Program-made: the position numbers and the translations under genes | NCBI GenBank assembly: GCA_001002135.1 | Contig: LCLP01000001.1 | Span: forward strand, 361,114-425,113 | Source: Candidatus Pacebacteria bacterium GW2011_GWA1_46_10 | Lineage (GTDB): Bacteria > Patescibacteriota > Microgenomatia > UBA1400 > PJMF01 | Direction of reading: 5' to 3' | Length of the DNA stretch: 64,000 nt | Notes under the pieces: generated by a model | Database searches by the model: none | The model's input: only the letters and a program-made list of their open reading frames with translations | What the model was told of the DNA's origin: nothing | Shown: piece after piece, positions 13,094 through 43,941 of the stretch | Numbering within the stretch: the stretch's first letter is position 1 | Layout of the letters: each line of letters starts with the position of its first letter

Positions 13094-13210
13094 ATGGTCA
13101 CGCTCCAATTTTTGTTTGGCAGGTTGATCACTTTTGTAATAGTGTTTGTGCTGGTGTTGGCGTTGTTCTCGGTGTATCTGTGGCTTACCAACTTGGGGTA
13201 TGAGTTTTAG
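13094..13210 (+). CDS. candidate 38-aa hydrophobic small membrane protein
   Basis: ATG...TAG encodes MVTLQFLFGRLITFVIVFVLVLALFSVYLWLTNLGYEF. A TTGACA hexamer lies about 25 nt upstream. Not in the ORF track (<60 aa). Overlaps the 3' end of the convergent nuclease gene by 4 nt. Confidence 0.25.
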   Translation: MVTLQFLFGRLITFVIVFVLVLALFSVYLWLTNLGYEF

Positions 13211-14073
13211 AGGATGACGCTTTCATCAGTGATATCAAAGTGGGGCAGGACGAAGATGTCTTGACGGTAAGTGGGGTTGGTACCGACAAATTCTGCTTGG
13301 CCGTTGACGATTTTTTCAAACGGTCGACAAATAGGACAGCCGGTTTCGCCATTGGGACAGCGGAAACGTTCCAGTTTGCGGGCTAGTTTAATTTCCTTCG
13401 CTACCTTGAACACAGTTTCATGTGATTGAGCCAAATTGGGGAGAGTCACATCAATGGGTTTGTCATCGGTTTCCAGATACCAATAGCTCATACCGTCAAC
13501 CTGGCGTTTTTGAGTATTGGTGACTAGCAGTAAGTAAATTGGTAACTGGAGGGAATCATTAGCTTCTTTTTTAGTACCGCTTTTGAAGTCCAAGATTCTG
13601 ATCTTGTCTGTATCAGGCAAGTATTCCAGCCAGTCCACTTTGCCACACAGAATAATTTCGTCCACCTCAGACAGCCAATAGTTTGGCAAGTCTTCTTTAA
13701 TCTTGATCGCCAGCCGACCAACCAGCCCTGGGTTTTTGATGATTTTCTGGAGCATCCGCTCACCACGCTGTTTGAACTCACGCTCAGTCTCGGTGTCAAA
13801 AAAGCCACCCTTTTTACCACTGACTTTTTGCCAAGCCTTGTCAAATTTTTGTAACAGATTGTCTTTGAAACGTTTCTCAACAGGCAGGGTCGATAGACTT
13901 TCAATTACTTCGTGGATAGCTTGGCCAAGTGACAGCGAGGGAGAGGCTAGTTGGACTTTGTTACCGGTATCGGGGTTACGGTAAATGTTTTTCAGGAAAT
14001 ACGCTCGAGGACACTTTTGAAAGTCGGAGATTGAACTGTAAGAGACCCAAGTGGCAGCGTATTTGTCAGGCAT
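13207..14073 (-). CDS. PD-(D/E)XK nuclease-family protein (Cas4/RecB-like) with a C-terminal Cys cluster
   Basis: N-terminal CPRAYFL, central ILDFKSGTKK (D...E-x-K-like core) and C-terminal CPNGETGCPIC. This pattern matches Cas4/DUF83-type nucleases with an Fe-S cluster. Confidence 0.5.
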   Translation of the reverse strand: MPDKYAATWVSYSSISDFQKCPRAYFLKNIYRNPDTGNKVQLASPSLSLGQAIHEVIESLSTLPVEKRFKDNLLQKFDKAWQKVSGKKGGFFDTETEREFKQRGERMLQKIIKNPGLVGRLAIKIKEDLPNYWLSEVDEIILCGKVDWLEYLPDTDKIRILDFKSGTKKEANDSLQLPIYLLLVTNTQKRQVDGMSYWYLETDDKPIDVTLPNLAQSHETVFKVAKEIKLARKLERFRCPNGETGCPICRPFEKIVNGQAEFVGTNPTYRQDIFVLPHFDITDESVIL

Positions 14074-14174: not shown

Positions 14175-14657
14175 ATGTTTGATCCAAAAGCTCCCTCATT
14201 TTGGGTGTTACTTTTGATGGCTGTATTGGGTCTTGCCGGCCTGGTTTATTTTTTTAAGGTGGGCAACTCTTTGCAGGTTGCTCCTTCACCTGTCAGTAAC
14301 CGACAAATAGCTCAACAGTCAGGGACAACTCAAGCTGAAAATGCTCCTCAAACTGGTCGATACCAAGAGTATTCGCCGGCGGCTTTTGAGGCGGCAGCTG
14401 ACCAGCGGCGTGTACTGTTTTTCCATGCGCCATGGTGTCCGACTTGCCGCCCATTACACGCGCAACTGCTGGAAAATGAAAACCGGATACCGGAAGATGT
14501 AGTAATTTTTAAAACAGATTACGATAGCAGCACTGAGCTGAAAAGTCGGTATGGGGTGACCTATCAACACACTTTTGTGCAGGTAGATCGTATGGGTGAA
14601 AAAATCAAGATCTGGAACGGCGGCTTACTGGAAGATCTATTGGCCAATATTTTGTAA
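14175..14657 (+). CDS. membrane-anchored thioredoxin-like protein
   Basis: N-terminal TM helix then a thioredoxin fold with the WCPTC active site. Shine-Dalgarno sequence AAGGAAGG. Confidence 0.6.
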   Translation: MFDPKAPSFWVLLLMAVLGLAGLVYFFKVGNSLQVAPSPVSNRQIAQQSGTTQAENAPQTGRYQEYSPAAFEAAADQRRVLFFHAPWCPTCRPLHAQLLENENRIPEDVVIFKTDYDSSTELKSRYGVTYQHTFVQVDRMGEKIKIWNGGLLEDLLANIL

Positions 14658-15017
14658 TTAGCGCAGGGTGAAAACATTGGTAGAACCGTCAAGTTTGACA
14701 GTATAGCCATCCACTCGGCCTCGGAACGACTCACTGCCGATCTGGCCACTAAAGGTTGAGCTTGACTCAATGCGCAGGGAAAAATCATCAATGTAGCCGG
14801 TGGCCGTAATTTGTGGCCAGCTGCCGCTCGTTCCGGTGCCCCTAATTTGTCCAACCCCGGATTCGTAAAGATCAATAGTCGTGTCGGTAATGGTGCCGCT
14901 AAAGCTTTGGCGCTGTGGGGTGTTATTTTCTGGGTACTCAACATCTCCAGCTCGGAAATCGCGGCGAGCGAGCCTGCCGGCGACAAAAGCGATGGTGTAT
15001 TCGGCTTGAATGGTCAT
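14658..15017 (-). CDS. hypothetical beta-rich protein
   Basis: 119 aa, G/S/T-rich with no motif recognised. Abuts the convergent thioredoxin gene. Confidence 0.3.
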   Translation of the reverse strand: MTIQAEYTIAFVAGRLARRDFRAGDVEYPENNTPQRQSFSGTITDTTIDLYESGVGQIRGTGTSGSWPQITATGYIDDFSLRIESSSTFSGQIGSESFRGRVDGYTVKLDGSTNVFTLR

Positions 15018-15065: not shown

Positions 15066-15476
15066 GTGGCAAAAGATCCTCAAGATCCCATCCAACAGGT
15101 GGCCAGAGAACATGCGTCTCAAGTGGGGAGAAAAGCTCGAAGTCTGAAACTAAACATCATGGCTTCTTACTTACTCACCCCAGCTTCTCTTGAAGAAGTT
15201 GGCCGTGCTTATGGTGGGGTTAGCAGGCAACGGGTTTTACAAATTACTCAAGAATCAATCCAAGCTTTGTGGGAAAAGTCGTCGCCTGAGCTAAAAAAAA
15301 GGTTTTCAACTCCTCCCGCCGCTTCAAAAGAAAAAGACCGACTTTATCTGAAGAGTATTGTTTCTGCTGCTATGACTGGCGACTTTAAAGAAATTAAGAA
15401 ACTTAGCCAATCATCCCAATCAAAATGGAGAAAGAAATTAAGAGAGAAGTTTGACATCGAGCTACCTATGTTTTAA
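15066..15476 (+). CDS. small HTH protein resembling sigma-70 region 4
   Basis: ASLEEVGRAYGGVSRQRVLQITQESIQAL resembles the sigma region-4 HTH. The track start is GTG; an internal ATG (MASYLL) is also possible. Confidence 0.4.
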   Translation: MAKDPQDPIQQVAREHASQVGRKARSLKLNIMASYLLTPASLEEVGRAYGGVSRQRVLQITQESIQALWEKSSPELKKRFSTPPAASKEKDRLYLKSIVSAAMTGDFKEIKKLSQSSQSKWRKKLREKFDIELPMF

Positions 15477-16094
15477 ACGCACTTCTCGTTGTGGGAACGG
15501 AATCTCGATTTGCTCTTTTTCAAACTCGGTGAGAATTTTTTCTTTTAACTCTGCCTCCACTCGCTCTACTCTTTCATATCTTTCCAAATCAATACCATAA
15601 ACATAGTACTCAGCCCGAAGATTGACTGACGAATCTGCAAATTCCACTACCATTAATTCAGGATATTGATGTGTATTAGATGAAACCTCAAAGTCATTTT
15701 CTAGCCATTGGACAAGCTGTTGAATGTAGATATCGAGCCTTAACTCGTCCTCTTCTTTCAAGCTTTTCATTTTTTTCAATAGCTGGTCCACCCGCTTTTT
15801 AAAGGAAGAAAATTTATTTGCATAACGATCGTTTAAACGTTCTAAGTTGTACTGCTCGATGGTTCGTAAATCGGCTAAGTACTTTGAGGCGTTATTGATG
15901 CCAAAAGAATCTAAAACTGGTTGAGGACGGTTCAACGAGGGGTCTTTTTTACTAATCTCAAAAAGTGAAAAGAAAGCTGCCTGTATGGTGGCAAACTCTG
16001 TTTCGATTCTGGTTGCCAACTCACTAATCGTTTGTTTTTCTTTGTTGTCAAGTTGTCTATCAGCTTTAAATTGACCCAAAACTCCTGCCATCAC
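15462..16094 (-). CDS. MscS-type C-terminal (alpha/beta) domain ORF; same frame as the upstream channel ORF, separated by one TGA
   Basis: C-terminus YPELMVVEFADSSVNLRAEYYV...IEIPFPQREV matches the MscS C-terminal domain. The reading frame is continuous with 16149..17417 except for TGA at 16149-16151. Confidence 0.5.
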   Translation of the reverse strand: MMAGVLGQFKADRQLDNKEKQTISELATRIETEFATIQAAFFSLFEISKKDPSLNRPQPVLDSFGINNASKYLADLRTIEQYNLERLNDRYANKFSSFKKRVDQLLKKMKSLKEEDELRLDIYIQQLVQWLENDFEVSSNTHQYPELMVVEFADSSVNLRAEYYVYGIDLERYERVERVEAELKEKILTEFEKEQIEIPFPQREVRLKHR

Positions 16095-16148
16095 AGTCAG
16101 CGTATAGATAAAGTCTCGATAGGTTTCTTCAAAGCGTTGTCGAATTTG

Positions 16149-17417
16149 TCAATACTCAACTCCCCAGCTAAGTATGGTTTTTTCTTCGTCAGCAATATTT
16201 TTTTTGAGCGCGGCTTTTATAGCGGGAATCTTTTCTGTGGGATCGCCGACTACGTAAGGATTGGCATTCATGATTTTTAGGACTACTGCTCGGCTTTTTT
16301 TCACATCAGTTCCATACGCTACCCCCAAGGGAAGACTCACTAGTAAGTCAGGTAATGGTCGAGAAAGATTAACAATGGTTTGGCTAGCCATTTCACTGTT
16401 GGGAATTGATACCACGGTATTTTCTTCCACTAAGTACAGCTCTGTGGCCCTGAGGCCAACTCGGCGCACTTCACAAATTCCCAGGTCTGGCAAGCGGATA
16501 ATTTCTCCGAATTTAAATGGTGTTTCAATAGTTAAAAATAGGCCACTAAAAATATTTGAAAGTGCCTCCTGCAAAGCAAAAGCAAGGATAAACGACGCTC
16601 CTCCGATCATTACGGACAACGCTGAAGTATTAATGCCTAAGAGTTGAAGAAAAAACAGGGTGGTGATGGCAAGAATTATTGGTGGAGCTAATCGCTCAAT
16701 AATAAGGACGAGGATTTGATCATAGCTTGATTCGGCTTGTTGAGCGGTATACCGAATTGAATAAACAAGAATTTCTTTTACAAACACTCGATTGAAAAAA
16801 TAAGCCCCAAATAATAGCCCCGTGAGCCTTAATGTTTGATCGGCCAAAGTAATTAATAGCGGTGAAGAAGAGTTTTCTTTGACAAGAAAACTTAACAGTA
16901 CGACAGAAACCCCTAGTGCGACTGGTTTCATTAACACTGTGGCCGCTACGACCACAAAATCGAATTTCGACCGTCGTGATAAAGACTTCAGTGAACCTGC
17001 TCGTTTGTAGCCGACTGAAAATACCCGTAGCAACCGCAGGCTTCGCAAAATTCGCAACGCCCGAAAAATACGAATCACTCTGATAGCGGGGAGTACAACA
17101 ATGACAACATCCAGCCAATTGTTAACTGTGTAATGCCATTTTTTGGGAGCTAACCAGATTCTAATCACAAACTCGATGAAAAATACTGCCCAAATAAACC
17201 AATCAAATATCTCCAGCGGTAACAACCATTGTTCAGGTACTGTGTAAAACCGAGGCAAAAGAATTCCCACCAGCATTAAAATAGCGAGAATCAACATTGG
17301 GATTTCAGATTTTTGTTCGAAACGTTCCAGTCGAGGAGTTTTTTCAGGTTTAGTAGTAATCATTCCCCACAACCCGAGTCTTTTAGTTTTATCGGTCATA
17401 TCGCTTTTTCTTTTCAA
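16149..17417 (-). CDS. ion-transport (voltage-sensor-like S1-S4) domain fused to an MscS mechanosensitive channel core
   Basis: Four N-terminal TM segments including the S4-like RVIRIFRALRILRSLRLLR, which has Arg at every third position seven times. These are followed by MscS TM3 and the beta domain (TIETPFKFGEIIRL...VVSIPNSEMASQTIVNLS). Confidence 0.55.
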   Translation of the reverse strand: MKRKSDMTDKTKRLGLWGMITTKPEKTPRLERFEQKSEIPMLILAILMLVGILLPRFYTVPEQWLLPLEIFDWFIWAVFFIEFVIRIWLAPKKWHYTVNNWLDVVIVVLPAIRVIRIFRALRILRSLRLLRVFSVGYKRAGSLKSLSRRSKFDFVVVAATVLMKPVALGVSVVLLSFLVKENSSSPLLITLADQTLRLTGLLFGAYFFNRVFVKEILVYSIRYTAQQAESSYDQILVLIIERLAPPIILAITTLFFLQLLGINTSALSVMIGGASFILAFALQEALSNIFSGLFLTIETPFKFGEIIRLPDLGICEVRRVGLRATELYLVEENTVVSIPNSEMASQTIVNLSRPLPDLLVSLPLGVAYGTDVKKSRAVVLKIMNANPYVVGDPTEKIPAIKAALKKNIADEEKTILSWGVEY

Positions 17418-17497
17418 TCAGTATATAAGAAAAAAAGCTTCCGTCAACGAAATTTTAATTCTTTCTTGGTGAAAATTAAATAAGACTGAGTGCTTTG

Positions 17498-17568
17498 ATC
17501 CCGGGCTAGGATTCGAACCTAGAACAACAAGTTCAGAGCCTGTAGTGATGCCATTTCACCACCCGGGA
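17498..17568 (-). tRNA. tRNA-Gln (anticodon CTG); CCA not encoded
   Basis: Cloverleaf read by eye on the minus strand: acceptor TCCCGGG/CCCGGGA, D-stem GTGA/TCAC, anticodon stem ACAGG/CTTGT with loop CT-CTG-AA, T-arm CTAGG-TTCGAAT-CCTAG, discriminator T. Confidence 0.75.
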
Positions 17569-17637: not shown

Positions 17638-18309
17638 GTGCAAAAGGTGCTTGTTTTGGAAGACGATCCACTCTTGGCCCAGACACTTAAGCAGGGTCTG
17701 ACGGCTAAACGTCTGGCAGTGACGGTGGTCAATGACTTGCGGGCATTTAGTCTGGCTGTCAATCGTGAGCAGTTTGCGGTCTGTGTGATGGATCGGTTGA
17801 TCGGTGATCGGGACTCAATCGAGCTGATTCCGGAAGTCAGAGAGTTGTTGCCCCAAGCCAGAATTTTACTACTGACTAAAAAGTCCGCGGTGCTTGATCG
17901 GATAGAAGGATTGGAGGCCGGGGCGGATGATTACTTGGCTAAACCTTTCTCGATGGCAGAACTGCGGTTGAGAATACGGTCACTCTTGTCACTCTACCGA
18001 GTGGAAAGTGAGACTCATGGTTTGTCGATAGGTAAACTGATGTTTTATCCTTTACAAGGTGTCCTACAGGGGCCGACCGGCAAGGTTTTTTTACCCAGGC
18101 GAGAAACCGAGATCTTACTGTGTTTGGTGCGGGCGGCTGGTACGGTGGTCTCCAAACGGTTTTTGGAGCGGACCTTGTGGCCGGAAACCTTTGAACCGAA
18201 TCCGAGCACCATTGACGTTTATGTTCGCCGGTTGCGCCAGAAACTTGGGTCATTTGGCGGAGTGTTGCGGACCAAACGCGGGTTTGGTTACTACCTGAAG
18301 TTACGCTAA
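17638..18309 (+). CDS. OmpR-family response regulator (receiver + winged-helix DNA-binding domain)
   Basis: VLEDD, VCVMD (phospho-Asp), LLLTKK and AKPF receiver motifs. C-terminal wHTH region (RRETEILLCLV...VYVRRLRQKL). GTG start with GAGGA Shine-Dalgarno sequence. Confidence 0.8.
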   Translation: MQKVLVLEDDPLLAQTLKQGLTAKRLAVTVVNDLRAFSLAVNREQFAVCVMDRLIGDRDSIELIPEVRELLPQARILLLTKKSAVLDRIEGLEAGADDYLAKPFSMAELRLRIRSLLSLYRVESETHGLSIGKLMFYPLQGVLQGPTGKVFLPRRETEILLCLVRAAGTVVSKRFLERTLWPETFEPNPSTIDVYVRRLRQKLGSFGGVLRTKRGFGYYLKLR

Positions 18310-18957
18310 TGGAAAGCGTAAAACGATGGTCGTACCTTGATTTGGCCTGGAATACAGCTGAAACTGGCCGGAGAACTCTTGTTCCAGTGACTTTTTGACA
18401 AAATAAAGACCCAAACCAGAGTGGTCCCTCTTGGTTGAGTACAAGGGAGTTACACTCAATCTGGTTGAAAGCCAATTCATGCCCTTCCCCCCATCGGTGA
18501 CCGAAATATTGATAGTTTGTGTCTGTTGTGCTGCAGTCAGAAAAACGAGCTTGTAATGTCGTTTGGGTTGGTAACTCTCGAAAGCATTATTGACCAGGCA
18601 AACGATCATTTCTTGAAAAACCAGTTTGTTACCGGTCAGTTGACAGTCGGCAGGCAGGACGACTCTGCTCACCAAATGACGCTTAAGTTGAGTACCTTCG
18701 TTGAGAGCAATCAATTCATGCAGTGCCTGACTGGGAGAAAAAGCGGTGGGATCGGCAGCGTCTGACAGTTTAAGGACAGACTGCAAATAGCGGGCATTTA
18801 ACAGCACGCGGTTCAGGTAGAGCTGAGAAACATCGGGAGCCGATTGATACAAATTTTCAGCCGCGATCTCAGTATTCAGCAAAATGTTGGTTAAGGGAGT
18901 GGCGAAACTGTGGCGGATGATTGGTGCAGTGGAGAATAAACGAGACTTCCCGGTCAT
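18301..18957 (-). CDS. sensor histidine kinase core (DHp + HATPase) without TM or sensor domain
   Basis: H-box IIRHSFATPLTNI, N-box LVNNAFESY, G-boxes DGGKGM and GLGLYFVKK. Only 218 aa with no hydrophobic segments. The 3' end overlaps the convergent response-regulator gene by 9 nt. Confidence 0.7.
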   Translation of the reverse strand: MTGKSRLFSTAPIIRHSFATPLTNILLNTEIAAENLYQSAPDVSQLYLNRVLLNARYLQSVLKLSDAADPTAFSPSQALHELIALNEGTQLKRHLVSRVVLPADCQLTGNKLVFQEMIVCLVNNAFESYQPKRHYKLVFLTAAQQTQTINISVTDGGKGMNWLSTRLSVTPLYSTKRDHSGLGLYFVKKSLEQEFSGQFQLYSRPNQGTTIVLRFPLA

Positions 18958-41026: not shown

Positions 41027-41280
41027 TAATTGGAAACTGAATCACAGGAAGATACCTCGTTTTTTTATTAAGGTGATCTTAAAGTGATTTACGGTATTGT
41101 ACTCTTTTGATATAGATTTATATATACAGAAAAATCAGATTGATTTTTTGAAAAATAATGGAAATATTTTAAAAATAGTTCAGCAAATTTACCACCAGAC
41201 GGTAAATGATTTGATTGGGCTTTTTTTGCTTTTCTGCTTGATCAAACTCGTTGTCAGTTTATCTCGGGGTGAAAAAACAG

Positions 41281-41286
41281 TACAAT
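41281..41286 (+). promoter_or_regulatory. candidate -10 hexamer (TACAAT, inside TACAATAGG) 6 nt upstream of ATG 41293; no Shine-Dalgarno sequence. Candidate promoter of the long plus-strand glycosyltransferase operon
   Basis: The AT-rich 225-bp divergent intergenic region 41027-41250 precedes cagTACAATAGGctcATG. Confidence 0.3.
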
Positions 41287-41292
41287 AGGCTC

Positions 41293-42201
41293 ATGGCACA
41301 CCATAAACTCTCAGTGGTGATTCACACCAAAAATGCCGCTGAGACGATTGAAAGAGCTTTGCGGTCAGTCGAGTTTGCCGATGAGAAAGTCATCATCGAC
41401 ATGCACAGCACTGATCAGACAGTGAAACTGGCCAAGCGGTTTACCAAACGCATTTACCTCCATCATGACGTCGGCTACGCTGATCCGGCCAGAAACTTTG
41501 GCCTGAAAAAAGCTCGGTTTGACTGGATTTTAGTGTTGGATGCCGATGAGAAGGTTTCACCTGAATTGCGGGCAGTAATTGAAGCTACTTTGGCCGAGCC
41601 CAAAGCAGATGTGTATTATTTGCCGCGCCAAAACTTTGTCTTTGGCCAATGGATTTTGCGGACCGGTTGGTGGCCAGACTATCAACCGCGTTTGTTTAAA
41701 AGGGGGACTGTTTCTTGGCAAATTGGGGTCCACCGGTTGCCTGATATCATAGGGTCTGTGGCGTATTTTCCGGCCGAAGAGCGATTTGCGTTAACTCATT
41801 ATAACTACACCACGGTCGCTCAGTTTATTGATCGATTGAACGCGTATACAACACTGCAAGCTCAGGAAAGACTGGCCGCTTCACCTCAAGATCATTTTTC
41901 CACCAGAGAGTTGCTGGAGATTTTTGGTGGCGAGTTTGCCAAACGCGCCCTGACTTTGGATGGTGTCCAAGATGGTTTTCATGGTGTGTCGCTGTCTTTA
42001 CTCCAAGCGATGTATGAGTCGGTGGTGTACCTTAAGCAGTGGGAAGAGAAAGGCTTTAGCCAAGCTGGGTCGGGGGATTTTGGCGCGGCTTTGACTCGAG
42101 TACAGCAAGTGTGGCGTTATTGGTGGGCCGATTACATGGTCCGGCAAACGGGAGGAATCAAACAGTGGTACTGGCGGGTGCGCCGGAAACTGATGGTGTG
42201 A
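41293..42201 (+). CDS. glycosyltransferase family 2
   Basis: KLSVVIHTKNAAETIERAL...LDADE GT-A fold. The track's 41251 start is TTG; ATG 41293 is preferred. Confidence 0.7.
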   Translation: MAHHKLSVVIHTKNAAETIERALRSVEFADEKVIIDMHSTDQTVKLAKRFTKRIYLHHDVGYADPARNFGLKKARFDWILVLDADEKVSPELRAVIEATLAEPKADVYYLPRQNFVFGQWILRTGWWPDYQPRLFKRGTVSWQIGVHRLPDIIGSVAYFPAEERFALTHYNYTTVAQFIDRLNAYTTLQAQERLAASPQDHFSTRELLEIFGGEFAKRALTLDGVQDGFHGVSLSLLQAMYESVVYLKQWEEKGFSQAGSGDFGAALTRVQQVWRYWWADYMVRQTGGIKQWYWRVRRKLMV

Positions 42202-42207
42202 TTATTT

Positions 42208-43941
42208 ATGGAGCATTTCATACAAAAATATCAGAGATGGATCTTGGGACTGATCATTATCTTGGCAGTCTTTGTTCGTTTTTATCAGCTTGGCCAGGTG
42301 CCCATTGAGTTGACTCGCGATGAGGCCTCGCTGGGGTTTACTGCTTTTTCCTTACTCGAAACCGGTCGTGAAGAGCATGGCACTTTCTGGCCGGTACAGA
42401 TTGAGTCTTTTGGCGATTGGAAATTGCCGCTGTATGTCTATACTTTGATTCCGTTTATCAAGCTTTTTGGGTTGACGATGTGGTCTGTCCGGCTGCCAAG
42501 CGCTTTGGCAGGAGTGAGTATCGTTGTGAGTAGTTTTTACCTTGTTTCACTGCTGACTCAAGACAAGAAGTATCGACTGTGGCTGAAACTTGGTGTACCA
42601 CTTCTCTTGGCTGTTTCGCCCTGGGCGGTTCATTTTGGCCACGTGGCGTATGAAGCGCACCTGTCCTTGGCTGTTTTCTTGTGGGGGCTAGTCGGCGTTT
42701 TAACCGTGATTCGGGATTTTGAGGCCCACCAACAACGGCGGCTGGGGCGTTTGATTAGTTCACTGTGTCTTTGGTCGCTGACTCTCTTGGGCTATCACGC
42801 TTACCAAGTATTTGTGCCGCTGTTGGTGGTGTTTGTTGGCTGGGTGTATTGGTCGACGTGGCGGCGGTTTTTCGGGGTAAAACGAAGGTTGCTGTTTGGC
42901 GTGGCCGCGCCTTTTGTGATAGTTGGGTTGTTACTATTGGGGAGTGGGGCGCAGGGAGCAAATCAAGTAAAGTTCAGCGGGCTTTCGATCTTTAGTTTAG
43001 AAGCTTACACCAAAGTGGTGGATAGTGCTCGAAAAGCTTTCAGTGATCCAAGCAACCCCTTTTTTGTTTTAGCGGCTAATAAAGTCGGTGCATTTTTTGA
43101 ACAAGTGCAAACAAATTTTTTCCGATTGATCTCACCAGAATTTTTGTTTTTACAGGGTGGAGCAAATCACGGCCACAATATTACAGGATTTGGAAATTTT
43201 TATCCTCTAATATTTTTCGGTCTGGTAGTTGGGATAGCTTCAATTATTATAGAACGTAAACAATGGTTGTATTTATTGGGCAGTTGGGTGGTAGCGGCCA
43301 GTGTGGCCCCGATGATTACTTTTGAGGCTAATCACACTACCCGTTTTTCGCCTGGATTTGTGGTGCTAGAAATTCTCTCGGTCTATGGTTGGGTTAAAAT
43401 AATCAAAACTGTCCGAAAAACACTTGGCAAAGTATGGCTGATGTTATTTTTATCGGCTCTTACTCTAGGCCTATCCTATAGTGTGTATCGTTTCTTGATT
43501 CATTATTATTTTGTTTTTCCGGTTCGAGATGCTCAATATTGGTTGTGGCAGATTAAACCGATTGTTTATTTTGTTAATGAGGTGAAAGCAGACTATGATG
43601 CAGTTTACATTCAAGATGAGAAATATTCGCCCTATACCTATTTTTTGTTTTACGAACCAGGCAATCCAGCTCAACTTTCACAGCGGATCGAGTATTACCC
43701 GGCAGATTTTGAGGGTTTTCGTCATGTGAGACGGCTCGATAACATCTATTTCCAAACCATTAATTGGGATGATCAATTGCTGTATGCTGACCAAAAAGTA
43801 TTGTTTGTAGTGGAAGAAAATAAAATGCCTGAACACCTTTCTTCACGATCGACTACAAAGCTCTTGATGACTTTAAAGCATGAATGGGTCCCAAAAGGTG
43901 TTGAAGTTTGGGAGTATCAGGGTTTATCTCTGGAAAAATAG
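42208..43941 (+). CDS. GT-C membrane glycosyltransferase, ArnT/PMT-like (paralog group A)
   Basis: Loop-1 LTRDEASLGFTAFSLLETGREEHGTFWPVQIESFGDWKLPLYVY..., about 12 TM helices, and a C-terminal soluble domain. Confidence 0.65.
   Translation: MEHFIQKYQRWILGLIIILAVFVRFYQLGQVPIELTRDEASLGFTAFSLLETGREEHGTFWPVQIESFGDWKLPLYVYTLIPFIKLFGLTMWSVRLPSALAGVSIVVSSFYLVSLLTQDKKYRLWLKLGVPLLLAVSPWAVHFGHVAYEAHLSLAVFLWGLVGVLTVIRDFEAHQQRRLGRLISSLCLWSLTLLGYHAYQVFVPLLVVFVGWVYWSTWRRFFGVKRRLLFGVAAPFVIVGLLLLGSGAQGANQVKFSGLSIFSLEAYTKVVDSARKAFSDPSNPFFVLAANKVGAFFEQVQTNFFRLISPEFLFLQGGANHGHNITGFGNFYPLIFFGLVVGIASIIIERKQWLYLLGSWVVAASVAPMITFEANHTTRFSPGFVVLEILSVYGWVKIIKTVRKTLGKVWLMLFLSALTLGLSYSVYRFLIHYYFVFPVRDAQYWLWQIKPIVYFVNEVKADYDAVYIQDEKYSPYTYFLFYEPGNPAQLSQRIEYYPADFEGFRHVRRLDNIYFQTINWDDQLLYADQKVLFVVEENKMPEHLSSRSTTKLLMTLKHEWVPKGVEVWEYQGLSLEK

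Follow-up and report, generated by a model that had tools for sequence, protein, structure and literature searches.

Can the voltage sensor of a potassium channel be joined to a mechanosensitive channel of the MscS family in a single polypeptide, and what becomes of such a gene when a stop codon arises inside it? Both questions are raised by a locus of Candidatus Pacebacteria bacterium GW2011_GWA1_46_10, a candidate-phylum bacterium from groundwater, within a stretch of 64,000 nucleotides of contig LCLP01000001.1 that was analysed as a whole and is hereafter called the window. Coordinates are window positions, residue numbers are counted from the ATG at 17399, and all parts of the channel gene lie on the minus strand. 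The frame from 17417 to 15462 comprises 652 codons with exactly one internal stop, a TGA at 16149-16151 in the context tat-TGA-caa, just as the initial annotation had described when it proposed here a voltage-sensing domain (VSD) fused to an MscS channel and interrupted by one in-frame TGA. The fusion is borne out by the sequence, profile and fold evidence presented below, and the stop codon is a nonsense mutation of the ordinary kind. Counted from the ATG, the whole VSD-MscS frame spans 15462..17399, with the TGA as codon 417 and a TAG stop at 15462-15464, and its read-through length is 645 aa.

The case for a voltage sensor begins with a match to PF00520 (Ion_trans) in the upstream open reading frame (ORF), with E 2e-9 and 37.4 bits against a cut-off of 25, over profile positions 6-117, which correspond to S1-S4. 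Alignment to the pre-S1/S1 region of bacterial voltage-gated potassium (Kv) channels places a cytoplasmic pre-S1 helix (RLERFEQKSE) and S1 at residues 23-51 (17247..17333), in which F, E and P are invariant. The S2 helix (residues 62-85; 17145..17216) carries the charge-transfer-centre pattern D-x6-F-x2-E-x3-R, followed by LAP, and this motif aligns residue for residue to NavRh, while S3 (residues 93-106; 17082..17123) bears an N-W-L-D motif whose Asp (D75 in the numbering of alignment A3) is invariant in the family and in its Kv relatives. The S4 helix (residues 107-125; 17025..17081), RVIRIFRALRILRSLRLLR, has the seven Arg spaced three residues apart that the initial annotation had described. 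It is followed at 16881..17024 by an amphipathic linker resembling the S4-S5 linker (residues 126-145) and a fifth transmembrane (TM) helix resembling S5 (residues 146-173), a region that is covered by the BLASTP alignment to the Kv channel P0251 and in which AlphaFold2 (AF2) predicts helices. Within the family, the S2 pattern, the S3 motif N-W-x-D and the arginine register of S4 are invariant; among the aligned Kv relatives this invariance extends to the aromatic residue and Arg of S2, to the Asp of S3 and to the register of S4, and the two acidic positions of S2 vary in a few sequences. The number of S4 arginines is 5, 7 or 9 across three subclades, and the 6-residue insertions or deletions responsible preserve the R-x-x register (alignment A3, which includes the window, locus L006 and proteins P0004-P0007).

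The relationship of this sensor to Kv channels was also apparent in wider searches. With a profile built from the N-terminal 153 residues of six family members, the best PDB sequences were NavRh, the KvAP sensor and NavMs (E 4e-4 to 5e-3), and the same profile, searched against 5.8 billion proteins, retrieved bacterial channels of 250-280 aa that combine PF00520 with PF07885, at E values down to 2e-25; PF00924 was present in none of the 120 listed matches. The profile query succeeded in this protein set, whereas the single VSD sequence had no match in it. In pairwise comparison, the N-terminus of the window protein is 36% identical over 159 residues (E 7e-23) to P0251, a Kv channel with a TVGYGD filter, and the alignment begins at the pre-S1 helix (RLxRFE) and passes through S1-S4 and the S4-S5 linker into S5. 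Moreover, the sensor has the fold of a VSD, and its structural matches include the VSDs of Ci-VSP, Hv1 and SLC9C1. The protein has no P-loop, GYG or S6 and no PF07885 match, and its alignment to the Kv relatives stops at S5. On these comparisons the voltage sensor is genuine and of Kv-channel origin, and the gene therefore joins a Kv S1-S5 module to a complete MscS. Two further proteins close to the Kv-type sensor, P0255 (130 aa) and P0274 (121 aa, from an Acidimicrobiia metagenome-assembled genome, MAG), are pore-less and consist of pre-S1 and S1-S4 only; they may be voltage-sensor proteins in their own right or Kv genes cut short.

The remainder of the frame encodes the MscS channel. Its TM1 (residues 190-215), TM2 (229-255) and pore helix TM3a/b (260-291; GGASFILAFALQEALSNIFSG) occupy 16527..16832 and were recognized from NCBIfam MscS models, invariant columns and Foldseek matches to MscS, YnaI and MSL, and the NCBIfam models for MscS, MscK and MscM match residues 227-395. 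The beta domain (16359..16565) matches PF00924 (MS_channel_2nd) with E 1.1e-11, so that both profiles singled out in the initial annotation, PF00520 and PF00924, are found above their cut-offs. The C-terminal alpha/beta domain comes in two parts, the first at 16233..16337 (PF21082, MS_channel_3rd, profile positions 2-39) and the second, which includes the C-terminal strand, at 15501..15725 (profile positions 20-88); the two halves are collinear with the profile, and each is below the cut-off because an insert splits the domain. The second half lies behind the TGA, in the downstream ORF, where an MscS C-terminal domain had been expected. The insert itself is helical, comprises ~170 residues (15726..16232) and contains the TGA near its start. 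These helical residues had been noticed from the start and do exist, but they had been placed between the pore and the C-terminal domain, and they are found inside the alpha/beta domain. In an alignment read by eye, Phe takes the place of the gate leucines L105 and L109 of E. coli MscS, within the invariant motif SF.LAFA.Q.

Structure modelling, which the initial annotation had called for, led to the same arrangement. The AF2 model of the intact orthologue P0003 (mean pLDDT 74) has eight membrane-length helices, four of them S1-S4, then an additional one, then TM1-TM3 of MscS; behind these come the beta domain and an alpha/beta domain bearing a bundle of long helices, several of them with pLDDT 85-96. 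In Foldseek searches this model falls among the structures of MscS, YnaI, MSL1, MSL10 and MscK, some of the alignments crossing the insert. Exactly one extra helix is needed between the two modules because a VSD has its end on the cytoplasmic side and TM1 of MscS its beginning on the outer side, and by this parity, drawn from the known VSD and MscS topologies, the eight-helix subunit would have both termini inside. By its pore and beta domain the protein is a member of the MscS superfamily; it bears a VSD by every sequence and fold criterion applied here and, having no filter, does not count as a Kv channel.

The stop codon interrupts an otherwise conserved gene. The TGA (16149..16151), followed by C, occupies a Trp position that is encoded by TGG in intact orthologues, and the full-length relatives are single ORFs of 619-658 aa with Trp at this place, so the homologues do not form two separate genes. 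A sense codon at this position, for which the initial annotation had asked homologues to be inspected, was confirmed as TGG at four loci, which represent three subclades: L001 (encoding P0003), L003 (P0007), L005 (P0006) and L006, the last from Candidatus Wirthbacteria CG2_30_54_11. TGG is thus the ancestral codon, and a G-to-A transition has turned it into TGA in the window, in support of the nonsense mutation that had been one of the explanations offered. Identical DNA bearing the TGA was found in eight contigs (L002 and L165-L171), which come from different runs and from Logan, JGI and ENA assemblies, the seven contigs besides L002 matching the window over all 1938 nt, and the assembly collection lists the truncated 416-aa product in 44 of its blocks. 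Identity across independent assemblies means that the stop is real and fixed in a clonal population, so what is seen here is a TGG-to-TGA nonsense mutation fixed in a clonal Candidatus Pacebacteria population. Among the eight sampled contigs there is zero variation, and no signal of selection at the population level is obtainable from them.

An error of sequencing or assembly that conceals a true TGG would explain why one database protein, P0002 from JGI, shows W at the stop while being 100% identical to the window sequence. This protein was considered as a TGG allele and rejected, as its own contig is identical in DNA to the window, TGA included, and the gene on that contig does not translate to the P0002 protein; its W is an artefact of a gene call with genetic code 4. 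With the seven further contigs identical over their whole length in different runs and assemblers, and with three GenBank MAG records that bear the 416-aa product, the sequencing error raised in the initial annotation is excluded for practical purposes, and a concealed TGG is exceedingly improbable. It would require that every one of these assemblies go back to a single faulty read set, which the differing run accessions make unlikely. P0002 itself has 385 aa and comes from L002 (JGI Ga0209642_10175801), a short contig that corresponds to window positions 15383-16619 and was called with code 4; in consequence, the channel gene is present in the databases in two versions, one truncated and the other repaired by an artefact.

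Some lineages of the Candidate Phyla Radiation (CPR) recode TGA, and a genome-wide reading of TGA as Trp (or Gly) would likewise turn the locus into one uninterrupted gene. Against such an alternative code, the window is densely packed with genes when read under code 11, and TGA terminates 21 of its 54 long ORFs, with short open extensions only. TGA is an ordinary stop in the source genome, recoding has a practically negligible chance of being correct, and even error and recoding counted jointly retain hardly any probability. Selenocysteine insertion or another programmed recoding of UGA was also considered and rejected: the homologues have Trp (TGG) at the position and not Cys or Sec, the predicted folding of the 86 nt that surround and follow the stop does not surpass that of shuffled sequences (z = -1.36), and an Rfam search over the 64-kb window had the neighbouring tRNA as its sole match.

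The fate of the interrupted gene has to be judged among several accounts. We consider it probable that the gene was recently inactivated and that its product is truncated, probably unstable and devoid of more than half of the alpha/beta domain. A number of observations weigh against this account of an inactivated VSD-MscS channel. The 228 codons beyond the TGA contain neither a second stop nor a frameshift, and the conserved C-terminal MscS residues are kept. In a relative-rate test, lineage-specific changes were counted in the window and in its sister P0003, with P0007 and Wirthbacteria as outgroups: upstream of the stop the ratios were 39:27 (P0007) and 39:33 (Wirthbacteria), and downstream they were 25:18 (P0007, not significant) and 31:16 (Wirthbacteria, p 0.04 uncorrected), which is at most a hint of relaxation downstream and one that depends on the outgroup. 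With intact downstream codons and such weak acceleration, selection may still be acting on the part behind the stop, which would imply its translation; the rates fit a recent mutation and equally allow continued translation downstream. As regards termination, Poole, Brown and Tate are said to have found in 1995 that TGA-C is the weakest signal in E. coli. In addition, the AF2 confidence is low for S4 and the linker (pLDDT about 50), on the side of the sensor.

The same intact codons, with their preserved C-terminal motifs, are what leaky or programmed read-through would lead one to expect, as are the C that follows the stop, the fixation of the TGA allele in all assemblies examined and the exact coincidence of the stop with a conserved Trp codon, where near-cognate tRNA-Trp would read UGA-C at a low rate, give a small yield of full-length channel and make the stop a throttle on expression. 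The position proves nothing, since TGG to TGA is among the commonest routes to a nonsense codon; TGA occurs in none of the orthologues checked, TGA-C serves as the ordinary stop of two other genes of the window, and 3' of the stop there is neither a stimulatory RNA structure nor an Rfam element. We found no positive evidence for read-through and regard it as unlikely. A further alternative is a functional split gene, whose 416-aa N-terminal fragment and C-terminal fragment of ~209 aa would be made separately and reassemble across a break in the surface insert. The break does fall within the helical insert and outside the core domains, the first possible restart codons, a GTG-ATG pair at 16089..16094 with which gene callers start a 209-aa ORF, lie 18-19 codons past the TGA, and both ORFs are predicted as genes; on the other side, a direct reading of the sequence upstream of the 16091/16094 restart finds no Shine-Dalgarno-like element, every orthologue is a single polypeptide and the downstream ORF alone has sub-threshold domain matches only, which makes a split gene very improbable. 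The boldest combination, a new voltage-gated class with seven Kv-type sensors on a heptameric MscS pore in which a leaky UGA-C acts as a dosage throttle for a potentially dangerous large-pore channel, seems to us distinctly doubtful.

On the account of a graft followed by recent inactivation, the history and working of the channel can be sketched as follows. The ancestral gene would have encoded one subunit of eight helices, to which a small bacterial Kv channel contributed S1-S4, the linker between S4 and S5 and an S5-like helix, joined to the N-terminus of MscS in exchange for the K+ pore, the MscS part being complete with TM1-TM3, the beta domain and the alpha/beta domain with its helical insert. 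Intact subunits would assemble into a heptamer as in MscS, and since some MscS paralogues bear additional helices at their periphery, the seven voltage sensors may, by analogy, be placed there as well, around the TM1-TM2 paddles. The amphipathic linker, lying at the inner leaflet, and the S5-like helix would then transmit the movement of S4 to the TM1-TM2 paddle, which senses tension, so that the membrane potential might shift the tension threshold of a large non-selective pore or gate it directly. In the Pacebacteria population, the TGG of the conserved Trp at codon 417, in the first helix of the insert, has mutated to TGA, and as translation ordinarily ends at TGA in this genome, the main product would be the 416-residue protein, which is missing more than half of its cytoplasmic alpha/beta domain and presumably has lost its function.

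The fusion forms a tiny and rare family. The full-length profile matched 31,791 MscS proteins among 1.84 billion representatives clustered at 50% identity, and its VSD part was matched by only two of these representatives (the clusters of P0005 and P0001), all others beginning at or after the linker. Ten MscS representatives, seven of them with N-terminal extensions of 180-250 aa, were checked for Ion_trans, which was absent from all except the family member P0005; a hidden Markov model built on the VSD region recovered known members only from the full set of ORFs at 164 fetched loci; and among 185,579 species genomes the one full-length relative was the Wirthbacteria MAG. The helical insert is common to many MscS proteins that have no VSD, in Anaerolineales, other Chloroflexota and cyanobacteria (including Microcoleus). 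This VSD-less subfamily with the insert includes P0008-P0011 and P0068-P0077 (loci L007-L012 and L088-L135), and 186 proteins in the representative search reached E<=1e-30 against the family profile.

Compared with known systems, the protein combines parts that are individually familiar. It shares the pore helix (..ALQ..LSN..G) and the beta domain, and on sub-threshold profile matches also the alpha/beta domain, with E. coli MscS, YnaI, YbiO and MscK and with plant MSL1 and MSL10, and with YnaI and MscK also the possession of additional N-terminal helices ahead of TM1. It differs from E. coli MscS and its paralogues in that these helices are a canonical S1-S4 sensor and an S5-like helix rather than generic paddle helices, and further in the long insert of the alpha/beta domain and the Phe residues, assigned by eye, at the L105 and L109 equivalents. 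With small prokaryotic Kv channels of six TM helices (KvAP-like; PF00520 with PF07885) the likeness extends from pre-S1 to S5 at 33-40% identity and includes the charge-transfer-centre residues and the S4 arginine register, whereas the P-loop, the T[VI]GYG filter and S6 are missing from the fusion and MscS stands in place of the K+ pore. KvAP-like channels have four subunits, and the fusion is expected to have seven because an entire MscS channel replaces that pore. The phosphatase Ci-VSP, Hv1 and the sperm Na+/H+ exchanger SLC9C1 resemble it as cases of a portable VSD on something other than a tetrameric cation pore, from which it differs in its effector, a predicted mechanosensitive heptameric channel, and in coupling that would run through the S5-like helix to the paddle. 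Channels of the bCNG type join an MscS-superfamily core to a borrowed cyclic-nucleotide-binding domain; their sensor is cytoplasmic and C-terminal, whereas that of the fusion is an N-terminal voltage sensor in the membrane. VSDs on non-canonical effectors (Ci-VSP, Hv1, SLC9C1) and MscS channels with borrowed sensors (bCNG) are the nearest concepts. No description of a VSD-MscS fusion was found in a full-text search of the open-access literature, and a review that mentions bCNG channels discusses voltage modulation for ordinary MscS only (PMC6833973).

As for the boundaries of the gene, the ORF listing gave 16149..17417 (422 aa from a TTG) and 15462..16094 (210 aa), and the initial annotation had begun the gene at 17417. 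The likely start is the ATG at 17399 rather than this TTG, because the deposited product has 416 aa and a promoter-like -10 element ends at 17420. That element belongs to a sigma-70-like promoter (TTGACG, 16 nt spacer, TATACT; 17420..17447, minus strand; 10 of 12 consensus positions) between a tRNA-Gln gene and the channel gene, which is a consensus match only, the count of such sites in the region not exceeding the expectation from shuffles. The 416-aa product is deposited as KKU18551.1, KKU84348.1 and HCR81226.1, from the Candidatus Pacebacteria MAGs GW2011_GWB1_47_8 and GWA1_46_10 and a third MAG record, under the GenBank name 'Transporter, MscS family'.

The tRNA-Gln gene (anticodon CTG; 17497-17568, minus strand) lies directly upstream of the channel gene on the same strand and is the only tRNA of the 64-kb window. 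Beyond it are an OmpR-type response regulator (Response_reg and Trans_reg_C; 17638-18309, plus strand) and a 218-aa protein with HATPase_c only (18301-18957, minus strand), in which neither HisKA nor a membrane part was detected; the two genes are convergent and overlap by 9 nt. Locus L001, which holds an intact orthologue, likewise has a Trans_reg_C protein beside the channel gene. Two ORFs that closely follow the channel gene on its downstream side in the window have no Pfam match and are called as genes in all related contigs, one of 136 aa (15066-15476, plus strand), which overlaps the final 15 nt of the channel gene on the opposite strand, and one of 119 aa (14658-15017, minus strand). 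Farther along, a thioredoxin-like protein, secreted or membrane-bound (14175-14657), lies beside a PD-(D/E)XK nuclease of 288 aa with a weaker Cas4-like match (13207-14073, minus strand). A long run of genes, mostly on one strand, occupies ~19000-62000; the six genes looked up there include a 'Polysaccharide biosynthesis protein' and a 'Nucleotide sugar dehydrogenase', several being 'hypothetical', and one ORF of the run has a PMT_2 glycosyltransferase-like match. Several adjacent genes of this run are in frame with a single stop between them (e.g., 41242-42201 and 42202-43941), which looks like tight operon packing and not recoding.

Overall, the locus means two different things for the genome and for the family. 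In the source genome, a fixed nonsense codon has split the gene, and annotators overlooked the voltage sensor. For the family, VSDs are known as portable modules and have so far been seen on tetrameric cation pores, on a phosphatase, on the proton pathway of Hv1 and on one transporter. A natural graft onto a heptameric mechanosensitive pore, with the S4-S5 linker and S5 retained, would offer a new case in which to ask how the motion of S4 does work on a gate of unrelated origin and how voltage modulates MscS, a matter of long debate. Intact orthologues exist and could be expressed directly.

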